Shown here piece by piece: positions 15,620-21,522 of a DNA stretch of 36,121 bases. The notes under the pieces are model-generated. The model saw only the letters and a list, made by a program, of their open reading frames with translations. It was not told where the DNA came from and made no database searches. Positions within the stretch are counted from its first letter, which is position 1. Each line of letters begins with the position of its first letter. The stretch lies in IMG/VR virus record IMGVR_UViG_2778261180_000005. The stretch is one strand, 5' to 3'. The stretch comes from a virus (lineage: Duplodnaviria; Heunggongvirae; Uroviricota; Caudoviricetes). The translations under genes and the position numbers were made by a program.

Positions 15620-16093
15620 TTAGACGACTTTCTGGAAAACAGCTTGTTTAACCGGAGCACCATCTACTACAAAGGTGAAGGTACGGCCTACTACAGCATC
15701 CTCACCACCAGTCATGGTAGTTTTAGACAGGAAGCCGTTATAAGCGATATGTACACCAGATTTTTTCGTAGCATCGATGTAGTAAGCAATTTTAAGCTGT
15801 ACGCGCTTACCGTCTTCGGTTGCTTTAATCAGTTTTTCGTGTACTTCGTTACCCGGCATGTAGTTGATCGAAAGTTCGATATCCGGTACAGACATACGAC
15901 CAACCAGCTTACGGTTATAAGCACCAGAGAAGTTAGGAACATCGATCGTAGAACGTTCTACACCAGTTTCCGGGAACGCTGCGCATTCTGGGATTTCCAG
16001 ATAGGTTTCAGCATCAAGGTCTTTATTGCTTACGTCTTCTTGCAGAAACAGACCAACGAGGCCACCAGAGAAAATATCAAATTTAGTAGTCAT
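15620..16093 (-). CDS. major tail tube protein (157 aa)
   Basis: Immediately upstream of the chaperone pair, optimised codons, strong terminator. Paralogous to the N-terminal half of the 277-aa protein. Confidence 0.8.
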   Translation of the reverse strand: MTTKFDIFSGGLVGLFLQEDVSNKDLDAETYLEIPECAAFPETGVERSTIDVPNFSGAYNRKLVGRMSVPDIELSINYMPGNEVHEKLIKATEDGKRVQLKIAYYIDATKKSGVHIAYNGFLSKTTMTGGEDAVVGRTFTFVVDGAPVKQAVFQKVV

Positions 16094-16147
16094 TATTCTT
16101 TTCCTTCTATTTTAAACAATAGGGCACATACCCGTAATTCTATTTAT

Positions 16148-16450
16148 TTAGCGGTTGCTCAAACGTCTATAACGAAGATGAGCGACCCCCCTATTTGTGC
16201 TAACGGTAATTACCGCCCCTTGCGGTGCAATACAAGAATGGATCTGTCCCCAATCATGCCCCTTATGGCTTCCAGAAACACAAAAACCATGAATAAACAA
16301 TTCAGAGTCACCGCCGCCACCACCGGAAGAATGAGCACAGAATGAAATAGTCCCGAAAGCGTCGGCTGTCCAACCGTTAGGAATATCAAACCATCCTTGA
16401 TTTGCTTTACCCGCCCTATTCCCCAAAGCGCCATCTACCCAAAATGCCAT
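16148..16450 (-). CDS. Gly-rich small protein, paralogue 3 of 3 (100 aa)
   Basis: Shares W..(5-15)..FDIPNGW, a Gly-rich loop and a V(S/T)F/V...(Y/R)(F/Y)(K/R) C-terminus with the two upstream ORFs. Start overlaps the upstream stop (TAATG). Confidence 0.7.
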   Translation of the reverse strand: MAFWVDGALGNRAGKANQGWFDIPNGWTADAFGTISFCAHSSGGGGGDSELFIHGFCVSGSHKGHDWGQIHSCIAPQGAVITVSTNRGVAHLRYRRLSNR

Positions 16451-16755
16451 TAGTGCATTCTCCTGAATTTGAAATAATGCAATCCACCTTTACCCAATGT
16501 AAAGCTAACGGTAGCACCAGCGCCAACTAAAGAACTAGCGCCCCAACTTCCGGCATTACCAGCGTGATGACCTGATTCAATCAATCCATTTACAGCCAAT
16601 TCAGAATCAAGATCACCAGCACCGTTAATGGCTTCCATATGAGCAAAAACAATTCCGCATGAATCAGTGACCCAACCGTTGGGGATATCAAAATATCCAC
16701 CATTAGCCCAAATACTAATAGCGTTTGACATTCTTTGATTTATCCATCCAGCCAT
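16450..16755 (-). CDS. Gly-rich small protein, paralogue 2 of 3 (101 aa)
   Basis: YFDIPNGW ... GATVSFTLGKGGLHYFKF. GGAG SD lies inside the end of paralogue 1. Confidence 0.7.
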   Translation of the reverse strand: MAGWINQRMSNAISIWANGGYFDIPNGWVTDSCGIVFAHMEAINGAGDLDSELAVNGLIESGHHAGNAGSWGASSLVGAGATVSFTLGKGGLHYFKFRRMH

Positions 16756-16757
16756 AA

Positions 16758-17054
16758 TTAAAACTCCATGAATTTAAAATATTCAACACCACCTTCACCC
16801 CCTAAACCAAAGGAGACGGTGCAGCCAGCAGGAACAAACGAATTTATAGTAGATCCCCAATTGGACCCACCACGACGACGAGCAACGGTCAAACCATCTA
16901 CGTTAATATGTGCATCAGACCATCCACCACCAGCATTATGACGCATGACAGCAACGCCAGCGCGAGCAGTACCATAGCCGTTAGGAATATCAAATACATG
17001 CCATTTTAAAGCATCGATTTTAGTATTAATTTCACTACTTACCCAATATCCCAT
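16758..17054 (-). CDS. Gly-rich small protein, paralogue 1 of 3 (98 aa)
   Basis: VFDIPNGY ... GCTVSFGLGGEGGVEYFKF. SD AAGGA. Preceded by hairpin GCGGGGA-GAAA-TCCCCGC (17068-17085). Confidence 0.7.
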   Translation of the reverse strand: MGYWVSSEINTKIDALKWHVFDIPNGYGTARAGVAVMRHNAGGGWSDAHINVDGLTVARRRGGSNWGSTINSFVPAGCTVSFGLGGEGGVEYFKFMEF

Positions 17055-17091
17055 ATAAGAATCCTTAGCGGGGATTTCTCCCCGCTTCCAA

Positions 17092-20000
17092 TTACCCTAA
17101 TTTAGCTTCAATTGCAGCAAGACGTTCACGAAGAAGTTTATTTTCTTCGCTCATTTCTTGGACCGCTTTAATTAAAAGCGCGTTCACTGCGGAGTTTGAA
17201 ATTGTTAAAATTTCTTCTGGGTTATCAAGAGATCCGACATTAGAAGTGCTAACAGCTTCCGGTAAAATTTCTTGTAAATCCTGTGCGATAATACCAATCT
17301 CATGTGCGATGACTTCTCTGTCAGAAAGAGACTTAACTTTATCGTAGGTTTTAACTTTTAGTTTATTTACCTTATCTACCGCATTTTCTTCGTAGTCTTC
17401 AACGTTAATTTTCAGACGACGGTCGGAACGAATATAAACATCGTTACAGTAAACCGACGCACTAGATGTGAAATCACCATTTGCAGCCCATGAATACCAG
17501 CCGCCTTTGTTCATATGCATCATTACGGTAGCTTGACCACCGCCAGCATGAACACCCATTGCCGCAAGATGATCAACACCCCAATGAGTTGCTTTCCAAA
17601 TTGAATATGCTTGGGTATGTGAATCCTGACAATCTAAGAGAATACCAGCAGGACGGTTGCGCCAGTCATCCCATGCACCACCAGAAACCTCACCACGGAT
17701 AAGAGCGTATTCACCATTATATGGAACACGTTCTCCCGCTTTAATCATTGCACCCTGGAAGTGATGACTAAATGAACCCCCATGATTATTTCGTATATGT
17801 AAAATACCATCATCTGTAGCCCAGATAACAGCCTTTTCCGATTCGCTGTCATCTCTAAACCAGATATGGCGTGCACCAGTTGAGTTTTTGATGGTTATTC
17901 CGGTAGGTCCATGCACGGTCAAAGCACCAGCTACATCAAATAAAACGGTGTTATCTGTTCTACGTTCAGTATAGAAGTGATAACCTTTGGAATCGCCGAT
18001 TTCCATTACTGCCGCGCGTCCAACTTCTGAATTTCCCCAATTGTTGATAGAGAATCGTTCAGAGCTATTATTCATCTGATTTAGGTATAATGTACCGTCA
18101 GTGAATGTTTCGCCAAAGAATCTAGTTTTAATGCTATTGGTTCCGGTGCGTTCAAATTCGGCTAAAAATCCTTTTGAGTCACGAAGACTTAAAACGTTAT
18201 TTCGACCTGTATTGCTTGCCCCCCAATGGACGAGTTCCATATAGTCCATAGATTGACGAGAACCAGATTTAAATAAAAGGTTGTCTTCGAGACGAGTGCT
18301 ACCATCAATTCCCAGGTGCAAACAACGAGCGGTTTCAGTACCACCTAAATATAGTCCACCATCATCAAAATTATAGCTGAATGGTCTGCGATTATTCCAA
18401 CTACCAAAAGAATCTTTTAAATTGGTAGTAAGAATATGGAAGCTAGAACCGTCATTGCGTAACATCAAACCATAGTTACCGCCTTTAACAGCCAAACGAG
18501 CATTTTCAGATAATGCAACTTCGCTATTCATTACAATTTTCTGGCCTTTACCACCAGTAATATGTAATTCACCGTCTTCGATCAAATTTATCGAGTTTTG
18601 ACCGTTATCGTTCCACCAAATAAAATCTTTGGTCGTCAAATCACCAAAACCAAACCAGCCATTACGAACATCTTGACCAGTGCGATAATCCATAAAATTA
18701 AAATGGCTTGCTTCGTTTGGTCCTCGACGAATATCAATACCAGCATTAGAACCGGAACCTAAGCCACCATCGATGGTCAATCTACGAATATGCAAACCGG
18801 TTACAGCCGAAAGCAATAATTGTTGGGTTACATCGGTATATCCAGTAGCAAGACGATAATTTTGGTCATCAACACTTTCGTGCCAGATAGTGGCAGGAGC
18901 AGAACTACGGAAGCGACGCAACATCTTTTTAGCATTTGTCGGTTGTTCGTTCATATGCTCAATGTCGTATTGGCCTTGATGGTTTCCAGCAAAATTTAAC
19001 GTTCCACGGTTGCTAAAGTTATTGAACGATGAAATGTTAAGAGCATCAAAAATTTCATCTGCAACAGGTTTTTCACCACCCAGATATTCAGGAGTATCCA
19101 ACAGGTTTAAAGAAACACCACCGGAAGAAACTTGATATTCTGCTAAAACAAATCCTGTATGTGCACCGTAGTAAGCGTAAAGATCGTAATTATCACCATC
19201 GGTTGGAATAGCGCAAAAATGTTGTTCATAATGCCAAATAGTATAATACGCATTGAATACAACACCTTTCGGGCTATTGTTGCCGCATCGAATCACCAAT
19301 TCGATAATATTGGCTTGTCCATTCATCCCGACGTTATAACCGTTACCACCAACCAAACGGATCTTAGCGGTGCGACCGTGTTGCTGTGGCATTGTCAAAG
19401 TGCCTAGTTTAAACCAACCACCCTCGATCCCAAAATTAAGCGTCTTCTGGAACAGTCGGTCAATTTCTGCTTTCGAATATGCGCCAATTTCAGCCGGAGT
19501 AGGTTTATCGCCTTCATGATACATGCGGTGAGAATATGACAAGTTACCCAATTCATCGTAGCCGTATGTTCTTACCGTATGAACCGGATTAGACCCATAA
19601 GTGAACTCAAAGCCACGAGCATGATTAACACCAGATGGATGCGGAACATGCAAGATCATTGCAATATGACCCGCCAGGTCATTCATGCGGAATGCACCAA
19701 AGTAGTCAAGATTACGCGCACTCGGATCATCAAAATAGTTTGCGGTCTTAGACAACAAATAACCATCAGTATAAGTGTTTACGTGTTTTTTGATGTACTT
19801 GCCATCACTCGATCCGTCGGCTGCATCAATACGGCTTTCTAAGCGTGCCAGTTCAGAATCAGTGTAAGACTTGTTATTGTCAACTTTGCTATGAATTGCT
19901 GAATTTTTGGCTTCAACATCACGGGTTAATGCTGCGACGTTATCCGCTGCCTCTTGCTTATTAGCCGCAATCACACCAGTAAGGTTATTGTAGGTGTCAG

Positions 20001-20613
20001 TTAACTGATTTTCCGCATAGACTTTATTTGCTGCGATAGTGCGGTCAGTTTCTGTCTTAATCAGATCAACTTTGTCATTGATTGCTTTGTCATTACTTGC
20101 GATTGTCGCGTCGGTACGGGATTTAATATCATCAACTTTTTTATTGATGCGGGTGTCCAGTTCCTGAGTTGCTACAGCAGCCGCATTTTTATTAGCGTTG
20201 ATGGTATCCGACAATTCAGCTTTAACACCAGCAAGATCGGAAGCAGCTTTATTTTTATTAGCTTCGATTGTCGCGTCGGTTTCGCGTTTAATTACATCAA
20301 CTTTATTGTTAATTTCTGCATGATTTGCTGCGATAGTAGAATCAGTAGTTTGTTTAATTTCATCTACTTTAGCGTGAATATTGCGGTCATTTACTGCAAT
20401 TGTGCTATCCAATTCTTGTTTGTTAGCATCAACTTTAGATTCTAGTGCCGCGTGAGTTTCAGGAGAAACAGAGATTTGAACTACTTCATGATCTCGGTCT
20501 TTGGTAAAAATAACATGGTCTTTAAGGTTGATTGCCACCTCACCGACCTGTAATTGTTCCGGCGTTGGCTTTTTGCCAGAAACATTAGTTCGTTTAAATT
20601 GGATTGATTGCAT
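17092..20613 (-). CDS. long tail fibre with C-terminal intramolecular-chaperone (peptidase S74) domain, 1173 aa
   Basis: Fibre-type N-terminus (IQFKRTNVSGKKPTPEQLQVGEVAINLKD). About 22-aa TDxTIAANxxxINxKVDxIK shaft repeats. KPTPAEIGAYS motif. C-terminus YIRSDRRLKINVEDY...GIIAQDLQEILPEAV is typical of S74 autoproteolytic chaperones (endosialidase, T5 pb1). Confidence 0.9.
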   Translation of the reverse strand: MQSIQFKRTNVSGKKPTPEQLQVGEVAINLKDHVIFTKDRDHEVVQISVSPETHAALESKVDANKQELDSTIAVNDRNIHAKVDEIKQTTDSTIAANHAEINNKVDVIKRETDATIEANKNKAASDLAGVKAELSDTINANKNAAAVATQELDTRINKKVDDIKSRTDATIASNDKAINDKVDLIKTETDRTIAANKVYAENQLTDTYNNLTGVIAANKQEAADNVAALTRDVEAKNSAIHSKVDNNKSYTDSELARLESRIDAADGSSDGKYIKKHVNTYTDGYLLSKTANYFDDPSARNLDYFGAFRMNDLAGHIAMILHVPHPSGVNHARGFEFTYGSNPVHTVRTYGYDELGNLSYSHRMYHEGDKPTPAEIGAYSKAEIDRLFQKTLNFGIEGGWFKLGTLTMPQQHGRTAKIRLVGGNGYNVGMNGQANIIELVIRCGNNSPKGVVFNAYYTIWHYEQHFCAIPTDGDNYDLYAYYGAHTGFVLAEYQVSSGGVSLNLLDTPEYLGGEKPVADEIFDALNISSFNNFSNRGTLNFAGNHQGQYDIEHMNEQPTNAKKMLRRFRSSAPATIWHESVDDQNYRLATGYTDVTQQLLLSAVTGLHIRRLTIDGGLGSGSNAGIDIRRGPNEASHFNFMDYRTGQDVRNGWFGFGDLTTKDFIWWNDNGQNSINLIEDGELHITGGKGQKIVMNSEVALSENARLAVKGGNYGLMLRNDGSSFHILTTNLKDSFGSWNNRRPFSYNFDDGGLYLGGTETARCLHLGIDGSTRLEDNLLFKSGSRQSMDYMELVHWGASNTGRNNVLSLRDSKGFLAEFERTGTNSIKTRFFGETFTDGTLYLNQMNNSSERFSINNWGNSEVGRAAVMEIGDSKGYHFYTERRTDNTVLFDVAGALTVHGPTGITIKNSTGARHIWFRDDSESEKAVIWATDDGILHIRNNHGGSFSHHFQGAMIKAGERVPYNGEYALIRGEVSGGAWDDWRNRPAGILLDCQDSHTQAYSIWKATHWGVDHLAAMGVHAGGGQATVMMHMNKGGWYSWAANGDFTSSASVYCNDVYIRSDRRLKINVEDYEENAVDKVNKLKVKTYDKVKSLSDREVIAHEIGIIAQDLQEILPEAVSTSNVGSLDNPEEILTISNSAVNALLIKAVQEMSEENKLLRERLAAIEAKLG

Positions 20614-20688: not shown

Positions 20689-21522
20689 CTAGAACTCACC
20701 GAAGTCGATCCGGTCATGGATAGAAACGGCTTCAATCTCGGCTGGTGTCGGTTTTTCTTCTGTGGAATACACTTTCACCCATCCCGAATTACCGTCTTTC
20801 TGGACTGTGCGAACTCGTAAACGTGGTGCGCCGGAAGCGGTGCAAGTTAATTGCCATCCACCATCTTCATTAGGTTGAACGTGAATTAGTGAAGTATCAG
20901 CACTAAATGGATTAGATGCGCTCGATCCCTGATAAGTTACGAAACGGTTTCCGGCTAATGCTTCACTATCAATCGGACCAGTGAATGGATGTACACCAGC
21001 ACCAATACCAAAATCACCTTGTCGCAGAATTTTTCCCTCGGTCGCTATACCCCTTGCTAGAATCCCGCCATCTGGTTCAAGTTTAAATTCCAGTGTTACA
21101 GCTTTGTTATCACTACCACGGGTTTTATGTGATGTGACGTAAGCATCATAGATGACATAGTAACCAGTGTTAGCAGCACTATAGCCAGAGTTCACAACAT
21201 AGAACATACGGAAGCGTAAAGGTGTTTTATCCTCTACCGCTTTCATCAACATTGCTTGATGTTCGTCATCCAGAACACGGTTTAACGTGAGTGTCGTCGG
21301 TTCCAGTTTACGATAACCAGCAAGTTTCCCCGTAGCGTCCTGATCATACTCTTCTAACGTCTGGATATCTGTAGATTCGGTTATCGTCGGGAATGCTGCG
21401 ATGTTCTCGATAGGACTAAATGCAGGATCGAAAAAGTCCGGCTGGTTATCCACCATAGTAGACACGGAGACTTCAACATGCGACCCCGTGAAAATGTCTA
21501 AGTTATCTTGTGTAATATTCAT
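20689..21522 (-). CDS. tail-tube-like paralogue with C-terminal extension (277 aa), possible fibre-anchoring or decoration protein
   Basis: The first ~165 aa align by eye with the 157-aa tube protein (DIFxG, AAFP, KLxG, LxxN, KAxED, and the LRFRMFY / VQLKIAY strand). The C-terminal part ends EEKPTPAEIEAVS, the motif also found in the fibre. Confidence 0.65.
   Translation of the reverse strand: MNITQDNLDIFTGSHVEVSVSTMVDNQPDFFDPAFSPIENIAAFPTITESTDIQTLEEYDQDATGKLAGYRKLEPTTLTLNRVLDDEHQAMLMKAVEDKTPLRFRMFYVVNSGYSAANTGYYVIYDAYVTSHKTRGSDNKAVTLEFKLEPDGGILARGIATEGKILRQGDFGIGAGVHPFTGPIDSEALAGNRFVTYQGSSASNPFSADTSLIHVQPNEDGGWQLTCTASGAPRLRVRTVQKDGNSGWVKVYSTEEKPTPAEIEAVSIHDRIDFGEF

Follow-up and report, generated by a model that had tools for sequence, protein, structure and literature searches.

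The window, that is, the whole stretch of 36,121 nucleotides that was analysed, carries on its minus strand three consecutive small genes (ORF A, ORF B and ORF C, together the triplet) between a tail-fibre gene and the tail tube gene (Table 1). The coupled reading frames of 98, 101 and 100 aa reported by the first-pass annotation are confirmed, and so is their placement, with the S74 chaperone domain recognised upstream and the tube protein (Pfam Phage_TTP_12/11) downstream. The junctions of 2 nt and -1 nt are also seen in the sequence. The TAA stop codon of ORF A is followed by TT and by the ATG of ORF B, and the stop codon of ORF B overlaps the start codon of ORF C by one nucleotide (TAATG). 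A Shine-Dalgarno-like AGGA/GGAG lies approximately 9 nt 5' of each of the three starts. The hairpin that precedes the Shine-Dalgarno sequence of ORF A, a putative element, folds as RNA with a centroid energy of -16.3 kcal/mol. A terminator is annotated at the equivalent position in phage G2248, and a similar hairpin is placed 3' of the T7-like fibre gene of a metagenomic contig (L029).

Comparison with the orthologues indicates purifying selection on all three genes. The dN/dS values, estimated where changes suffice, range from 0.04 to 0.45 and are mostly 0.1-0.2, so A, B and C are real functional coding genes. A plus-strand ORF that overlaps ORF C (15644-16345, 233 aa) was judged a by-product of the minus strand and dismissed.

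Table 1. Features of the triplet locus and its surroundings (positions of the window)
Feature	Coordinates	Strand	Description
Tail tube gene	15620..16093	-	Pfam Phage_TTP_12/11; phrog_158 major tail protein, 6.7e-20
Mobile cassette (distal fibre + chaperone + A-B-C)	16132..19527	-	87% nt identity to T4-like Krischvirus vB_EcoM_G37-3 (Megablast)
ORF C	16450..16148	-	100 aa; third paralogue; orthogroup end ...RYRRLSNR
ORF B	16755..16450	-	101 aa; predicted N-terminal helix (aa 2-13) and jelly roll; orthogroup end ...FKFRRMH
ORF A	17054..16758	-	98 aa; predicted N-terminal helix and C1q/TNF-like jelly roll; orthogroup end ...FKFMEF
GC-rich hairpin (putative)	17067..17086	-	GCGGGGAG-AAAU-CUCCCCGC type, 8 bp; 3' of the fibre stop codon, 5' of the ORF A Shine-Dalgarno
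Tail-fibre gene	17092..20613	-	1173 aa; Pfam Gp34_trimer + Peptidase_S74
Peptidase_S74 chaperone core	17251..17427	-	aa 1063-1121; Pfam PF13884, E 2.4e-14

The distal part of the fibre, approximately 330 aa, consists of a T2/T6-type gp37 tip followed by the C-terminal intramolecular chaperone, and the segment 17137-18132 of the window is 95% identical in nucleotides to gp37 of Tequatrovirus IME340. The chaperone is predicted to cut itself off within ...NDVYIR/SDRRLK, between R1062 and S1063 (nt 17428/17427), a position deduced from the known behaviour of S74 proteins. The motif ...YIR/SD.R.K is kept in every aligned fibre, either triplet-linked or gp38-linked. The difference in the extreme C-terminal tail of the chaperone (EENKLLRERLAAIEAKLG vs EEIKELKTPFFTKIARKISKYFKF) might have marked the triplet functionally, an idea that was set aside. 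It is more simply the recombination border, since divergent loci have other generic endings. The tube gene forms the downstream border of the slot and lies outside the cassette.

Paralogy, sequence variation and reach of the family

Pairwise BLASTP comparisons (A-B 3e-13, B-C 3e-14, A-C 1e-8) place the similarity of the three proteins well beyond chance and, judged from their sequences, A, B and C are clearly paralogues. The residues common to the three are M1, W4, the block FDIPNG(W/Y), G33, D47, G54, WG and G77. The Gly-rich loops described at the outset (NAGGGWSD, INGAGDLDSE and SSGGGGGDSE) are present as claimed. The block (F/Y)FDIPNG(W/Y) stands in part: FDIPNG(W/Y) is shared, and the preceding residue is V, Y or W instead of F or Y. 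The proposed V(S/T)F strand and (Y/R)(F/Y)(K/R) C-terminus are not those of ORF C, which has VITV and ...LRYRRL in place of V(S/T)F and ...YFKF.

Ortholog pairs are closer to each other than paralog pairs, and each of the orthogroups A, B and C has its private invariant residues. The tryptophan at position 4 is invariant across the retrieved members from E. coli, Shigella and Salmonella. In distant members it is replaced by L, M, Y, Q or N, and the fibre tips of these distant lineages differ too. The strong hypervariability expected from the first inspection is not borne out: the variation of the triplet is moderate, and among the E. coli loci ORF C varies least, being nearly invariant there (dN 0.004-0.08). 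Variation of this extent is modest for a receptor-binding surface, which counts against the reading of the triplet as an adhesin.

The family had not been recognised in the first-pass annotation, and the profile searches with A, B and C are consistent with this. Pfam returns nothing real (one match, E 0.16), PHROGs only weak, non-chaperone matches (E of at least 0.02), and neither NCBIfam nor the PADLOC defence models give any match. The sequence search of the PDB gives no meaningful match either. An indexed search retrieves 35 clusters, whose members come without exception from E. coli, Shigella or Salmonella and carry the annotation 'hypothetical'. When 1.84 billion representatives were scanned exhaustively with the HMM, 18 matches were obtained, 15 of which are stand-alone proteins of approximately 100 aa, and no version of the family fused to a fibre as its head. 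In the remaining three (P0047, P0050 and P0053), all very long proteins, the match is broken up into many short stretches. They were considered as possible fibre-fused versions of the triplet and rejected: P0050, which was inspected, is an unrelated repeat protein, and P0047 and P0053 are similarly very long with short matches. A pattern scan of genome contigs gives no confirmed relatives of the triplet, and no paper describing A, B or C was found in the literature on Krischvirus, on gp38/gp37 long tail fibres or on UPWr_E1.

Predicted fold

The AlphaFold2 models of ORF A (pLDDT 83.3) and ORF B (pLDDT 86.9) are independent and agree with each other. Both contain an N-terminal helix of lower confidence (pLDDT 58-71), followed by a compact eight-strand beta-sandwich. 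The low confidence of the helix is as expected for an element that needs a partner. The topology of the sandwich is that of the C1q/TNF jelly roll, and the best fold matches of both models are C1q/TNF heads, including the A and C chains of the heterotrimeric C1q. Further matches are collagen VIII NC1, adiponectin, cerebellin, many TNF ligands, BclA and XepA, and the sequence identity to these structural matches is 4-14%. The neighbours among predicted viral structures are mostly C-terminal tail-fibre heads, with C1q-domain and collagen-repeat proteins among the neighbours. The early suggestion of a small jelly-roll receptor-binding head thus agrees with two independent models and with the viral neighbours. 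On the other hand, the Gly runs (5-8 residues) are modelled as short inter-strand loops of the sandwich, and polyglycine helices of the gp38 kind are not supported. Judging by the alternation of the strands, the two termini would be together at one end of the sandwich, and the FDIPNG, Gly-rich, WG and G-x-GG loops would be at the opposite end.

The likeness to C1q/TNF is at the level of the fold, in single-chain models, and may be convergent. The triplet proteins are also smaller, with approximately 80 residues and eight strands in the predicted domain, whereas the C1q/TNF domains have approximately 130 residues and ten strands. They lack the Pfam signatures C1q (PF00386) and TNF (PF00229) as well as a collagen stalk, the stalk being here a separate fibre protein. 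By analogy, the closest counterpart of the triplet is the C1q head, in which the products of three tandem paralogous genes come together as a heterotrimer. The C1q/BclA-like fibre heads and the collagen-like phage proteins are the nearest predicted viral structures and share the same presumed distal position, but these heads are fused to the fibre chain and homotrimeric, whereas the triplet is encoded by three separate genes.

Mobility of the cassette and alternation with gp38

The cassette in Table 1 is shared with a T4-like phage, whereas nothing close to the rest of the window, searched over positions 1-25000, is contained in a set of 50,697 phage records. Among the phage records searched, the triplet is present in three only, namely G37-3, G2248 and UPWr_E1. 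In complete E. coli genomes, the triplet occurs in 24 of 5,426 and is full-length in 22 of these 24; the related tail region is present in approximately 55 E. coli genomes, roughly 31 of which lack the triplet.

The family HMM was used to scan 19 loci from the window, prophages and phages. Sixteen of them have an intact A-B-C, always downstream of the fibre, and three are degraded (KFS-EC, TO6 and L019). The order fibre, A, B, C is kept in all 16 intact loci, some of them in Salmonella prophages at approximately 30-60% identity, and four shorter contigs agree with it. The loci that bear this order include those of E. coli and Salmonella siphoprophages, of three T4-like Krischviruses and of a T7-like podovirus. 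Six metagenomic contigs show the A-B-C order after an S74-terminated fibre, although two of them end before the end of ORF C. In three metagenomic contigs (L029-L031) the fibre is of the T7 gene-17 type (Phage_T7_tail + Peptidase_S74) with a gp37-like tip, and it is followed by the hairpin, by A-B-C with the same junctions and then by a T7 gp17.5-like holin. It follows that the cassette serves phages of three morphotypes, namely siphoviruses, myoviruses and podoviruses. A tblastn search with the T7-like B protein gave no cultured T7-like phage with the triplet. Fibre tip, chaperone and A-B-C move as one recombination cassette among the three morphotypes.

In T2/T6/S16-type gp37, the C-terminal intramolecular chaperone is cut off and the monomeric gp38 subsequently caps the trimeric tip (PMC6851490). 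It docks through three N-terminal helices, whose apex Trp residues, placed every 120 degrees, enter equivalent hydrophobic pockets of gp37 (PMC6851490, section 2.7). The triplet occupies the same position. In G37-3, G2248 and UPWr_E1 it comes after gp37 and is followed by an ORF of 79 aa and then by the holin gene, and in the Tequatroviruses RB32 and IME340 gp38 lies between gp37 and the holin. The mature tips of triplet-linked and gp38-linked fibres are near-identical in three independent pairs (window/IME340, G37-3/RB32 and ETEC1739/TO6), and all fibres of these pairs end ...YIR/SDRRLK. Like gp38, the triplet thus immediately follows an S74-terminated gp37-type fibre gene and is paired with the tip of this fibre.

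A sister prophage in E. coli TO6 has a gp38 adhesin (Pfam GP38 1e-69, Gp38_N 6e-19) in the same slot, flanked by the fibre and tube genes, and 70 aa of ORF C (family HMM E 9e-24) are left as a remnant 3' of gp38. The borders of this replacement correspond to position 17137 of the window, in the chaperone tail, and to approximately 16338, in the Gly-run of ORF C. Phage KFS-EC has gp38 at a Krischvirus-specific site (Pfam 5e-71) and, adjacent to gp37, only a decayed A/C fusion, the deletion spanning from the Gly-run of A to the Gly-run of C. That KFS-EC is viable with no functional triplet counts against a need for the triplet, although this phage has gp38. RB49 and its relatives have gp38 at the Krischvirus-specific site and no triplet; this site is empty in G37-3 and G2248, both of which have an intact triplet.

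Among the genomes examined, an intact gp38 and an intact triplet never occur together. The search for gp38 covered the window, the whole genome of G37-3, and the first 50 kb and the gp37 region of G2248. The window, with its intact triplet, has no gp38, and none is detected by tblastn (E<=10) in the whole genome of G37-3, which also has the triplet intact. The link to gp38-type adhesins drawn by the first-pass annotation is therefore upheld at the level of the slot, where the triplet alternates with gp38 behind near-identical tips.

Homology to gp38 is a different matter. A, B and C give no match to Pfam GP38 or Gp38_N even at E<=10, in the same test that returns 1e-69 and 5e-71 for the gp38 of TO6 and KFS-EC, and the fold differs. 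Since both the profile and the fold tests fail, the triplet is outside the gp38 family. The N-termini of the triplet proteins show a weak likeness to the gp38 helices, with an empirical p of 0.01-0.05 for the E. coli proteins and no significance for those of Salmonella. Homology with the three Trp helices of gp38 was considered on this basis, and the weak signal is treated as a resemblance.

The parallels to gp38 (T2/T6/S16; PF05268 + PF21721; PDB 6F45) can be listed as follows. Both occupy the same slot after an S74-ended gp37-type fibre with near-identical tips. Gp38 is separately encoded and caps the processed trimeric tip; the triplet is separately encoded and a predicted cap. Gp38 docks by helices with apex aromatics; a possible counterpart in the enterobacterial triplet is W4, present in each of its three chains within an N-terminal helix predicted from the models of A and B. 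On the other hand, gp38 is a single monomeric chain of 260 aa that is built as a beta-helix and a polyglycine-II sandwich, whereas the triplet consists of three jelly-roll chains of approximately 100 aa, as modelled, without sequence homology to gp38. Attachment and receptor binding are proven for gp38, whereas those of the triplet are proposed.

A candidate fibre-tip cap and the competing explanations

The triplet probably encodes a fibre-tip cap that is made separately from the fibre and built from a new protein family. We favour, with a probability of roughly 0.6, a tripartite and probably heterotrimeric cap or adhesin that replaces gp38 on the processed gp37-type tip. The comparative evidence largely bears out the first functional guess, which had envisaged alternative or heteromeric fibre tips. 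The heteromeric option is the better supported of the two, because every intact locus has exactly three copies in one fixed order. The more specific proposal, that the module is one A:B:C heterotrimer, is tentative and stands slightly below even odds.

In the proposed mechanism, one coupled transcript just 3' of the fibre would give A, B and C in roughly equal amounts, as three paralogous C1q/TNF-like jelly-roll protomers of approximately 10.5 kDa, each with a short N-terminal helix. The protomers would then assemble, the A:B:C heterotrimer being the most likely arrangement, into a globular cap. The S74 chaperone would fold the fibre and cut itself off, and the cap would subsequently dock on the new C-terminal end of the trimeric tip and be carried on the virion. 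The three N-terminal helices may be the counterpart of the three-helix attachment bundle of gp38; their weak likeness to the gp38 helices and the replacement of W4 in distant members speak against this. The distal face, presumably the one that binds the receptor, would be formed by the apex loops, i.e. FDIPNG[W/Y], the Gly-rich loop, WG and G-x-GG. The cap would thus take the place of the monomeric gp38 and probably also its role in receptor binding. The fullest version of this proposal describes an obligate heterotrimeric C1q-like adhesin with an asymmetric binding face, carried by enterobacterial siphoviruses, myoviruses and podoviruses in a portable cassette of tip, chaperone and head; it is offered with reserve, as a possibility that narrowly misses an even chance.

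The host range of T-even phages is decided by tip adhesins that have genes of their own, and exchanging gp38 is already a means of re-targeting phages. If the favoured reading is correct, the triplet would be a second, unrelated solution for the fibre tip that gp38 serves, and it would explain host recognition both in a prophage family of E. coli and Salmonella and in the gp38-less Krischviruses, such as G37-3. Gp38 alone is taken into account in recent surveys of this adhesin and in recent receptor predictors, and genome-based predictors that now look for gp38 only would be corrected. The triplet would also offer a compact and naturally portable module (approximately 0.9 kb in addition to the fibre end), one already in use on siphovirus, myovirus and podovirus chassis. 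Structurally, it would be a phage counterpart of the heterotrimeric C1q head, and it would be well suited to the question of how an asymmetric binding surface is presented by a threefold fibre.

Among the competing explanations, an improbable one is that A, B and C are assembly factors which fold, trim or cap the tip and are then released, the gp37 tip itself binding the receptor. The strict linkage of the triplet to the fibre gene and its modest sequence variation would suit such a role, and the gp38 of T4, in the same genetic slot, is a chaperone and not an adhesin (PMC6851490). T4 gp38 and Tfa are also small proteins that are encoded directly 3' of a fibre and act on its tip. However, no similarity of these proteins to the triplet was found in sequence or fold, and an S74 intramolecular chaperone is already part of the fibre. 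Such tips are also assembled in phages equipped with gp38 only. In addition, the C1q/TNF-like jelly roll predicted for the triplet is typical of distal heads and is no known chaperone fold. Profiles of tail-fibre assembly chaperones (Tfa, T4 gp38 and gp57A, in Pfam, NCBIfam and PHROGs) give no match to A, B or C.

It is quite unlikely that the three proteins are alternative homotrimeric heads, with AAA, BBB or CCC on each fibre and up to three specificities on each virion. C1q/TNF-like heads are usually homotrimers, and the N-terminal helix and FDIPNG are kept in all three proteins, so that each could dock on the same tip. But interchangeable copies are expected to be gained, lost and shuffled, whereas the copy number of three and the A-B-C order are constant at 25-60% identity and across three morphotypes. 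Each orthogroup keeps its private invariant positions, and the tight translational coupling suggests equimolar synthesis.

Finally, it is very improbable that A, B and C are passenger genes for superinfection exclusion, receptor masking or anti-defence, placed beside a fibre whose naked gp37 tip is the one used: genes that adjoin receptor-binding genes are sometimes exclusion or masking factors, as is T5 llp, and the family is without an annotated function, but A, B and C have no signal peptide, lipobox or transmembrane segment (maximum 19-residue hydropathy 0.66-0.90) and no PADLOC match, they are placed in late structural operons, between fibre and holin in strictly lytic T4-like and T7-like phages, and their coupling, the purifying selection on all three and the gp38-or-triplet pattern are hard to explain in passengers.

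Genes and features bordering the fibre cassette

The gene located directly upstream of the S74-chaperone tail-fibre gene encodes a 277-aa protein, with a tail-tube-like domain at its N-terminus (phrog_158, aa 11-154, E 9e-9). Consequently, tube-type genes lie on both sides of the cassette formed by the fibre and the triplet of paralogous ORFs A, B and C. The C-terminus of the 277-aa protein, EEKPTPAEIEAVS, resembles the KPTPAEIGAYS motif found within the fibre, and the protein might anchor the fibre. The N-terminal part of the fibre itself contains a series of alike segments spaced by about 11 residues (…IAAN…KVD.IK..TD.TI…) and gives a weak Pfam Apolipoprotein match, a feature also present in the Salmonella fibres. 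This part probably forms a coiled-coil shaft built of repeats.

A GC-rich hairpin lacking a strong U-tract separates the fibre stop codon from ORF A. A hairpin is placed at the equivalent position in the T7-like locus (L029, ~1957-1980), and in the annotation of the Krischvirus G2248 this position is assigned as a terminator. The hairpin may hold the expression of A, B and C below that of the fibre.

In every Krischvirus examined, a conserved 79-aa ORF directly precedes the holin gene. This ORF follows the triplet in G37-3, G2248 and UPWr_E1, and is placed outside the cassette because in RB49, which has no triplet, it comes directly after gp37.

Coordinates of the features and of the loci compared
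Feature	Location	Strand	Basis
277-aa ORF directly upstream of fibre gene	window 20689-21522	-	phrog_158 match
Fibre N-terminal part, aa ~60-250	window ~19860-20430	-	similar segments in series
GC-rich hairpin, fibre stop codon to ORF A	window 17067-17086	-	RNA fold
233-aa ORF overlapping tube gene and ORF C	window 15644-16345	+	open reading frame
Conserved 79-aa ORF	L001:4722-4961; L027:8700-8939	- (L001)	phrog_402 (function unknown)
gp38 at displaced site	KFS-EC L026:13142-13918; RB49 NC_005066 45370-46143
Loci compared for Gly-run end-points	L003:4121-4444; L005:3146-3358
ORF B with N-terminal extension	L009:5609-6001; L011:5947-6339; L029:2289-2657; L034:1255-1632

Rearrangement and displacement of gp38

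The rearrangement end-points match the Gly-run coding stretches of ORFs C and A (window ~16310-16338 and ~16786, respectively). The stretch missing from the Krischvirus KFS-EC by deletion corresponds to window 16325-16786, and the gp38 replacement in the sister E. coli prophage TO6 ends at about window 16338. The GGT/GGC repeats may be recombination hot spots. In RB49-like Krischviruses, the tip adhesin gene gp38 is located about 55 kb away from gp37, flanked by two small ORFs, a displacement likewise remarked in a 2026 preprint. In G37-3 and G2248 only an empty 62-nt gap is left at this site (regions compared: L021 45627-46200 and L028 44960-45533).

Variation of the middle paralogue and a rejected ORF

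In Salmonella prophages, T7-like contigs and other divergent loci, ORF B carries an extra conserved N-terminal segment of approximately 13-30 aa (for example, MEKKFINxPVxTEEIKQ...RIP). In one IMG/VR prophage contig (L019:6001-6222), a frameshift shortens ORF B to 73 aa while A and C are intact, which reflects either decay or a sequencing error. The 233-aa plus-strand ORF was rejected as a gene; it almost certainly just shadows the coding sequence on the other strand.
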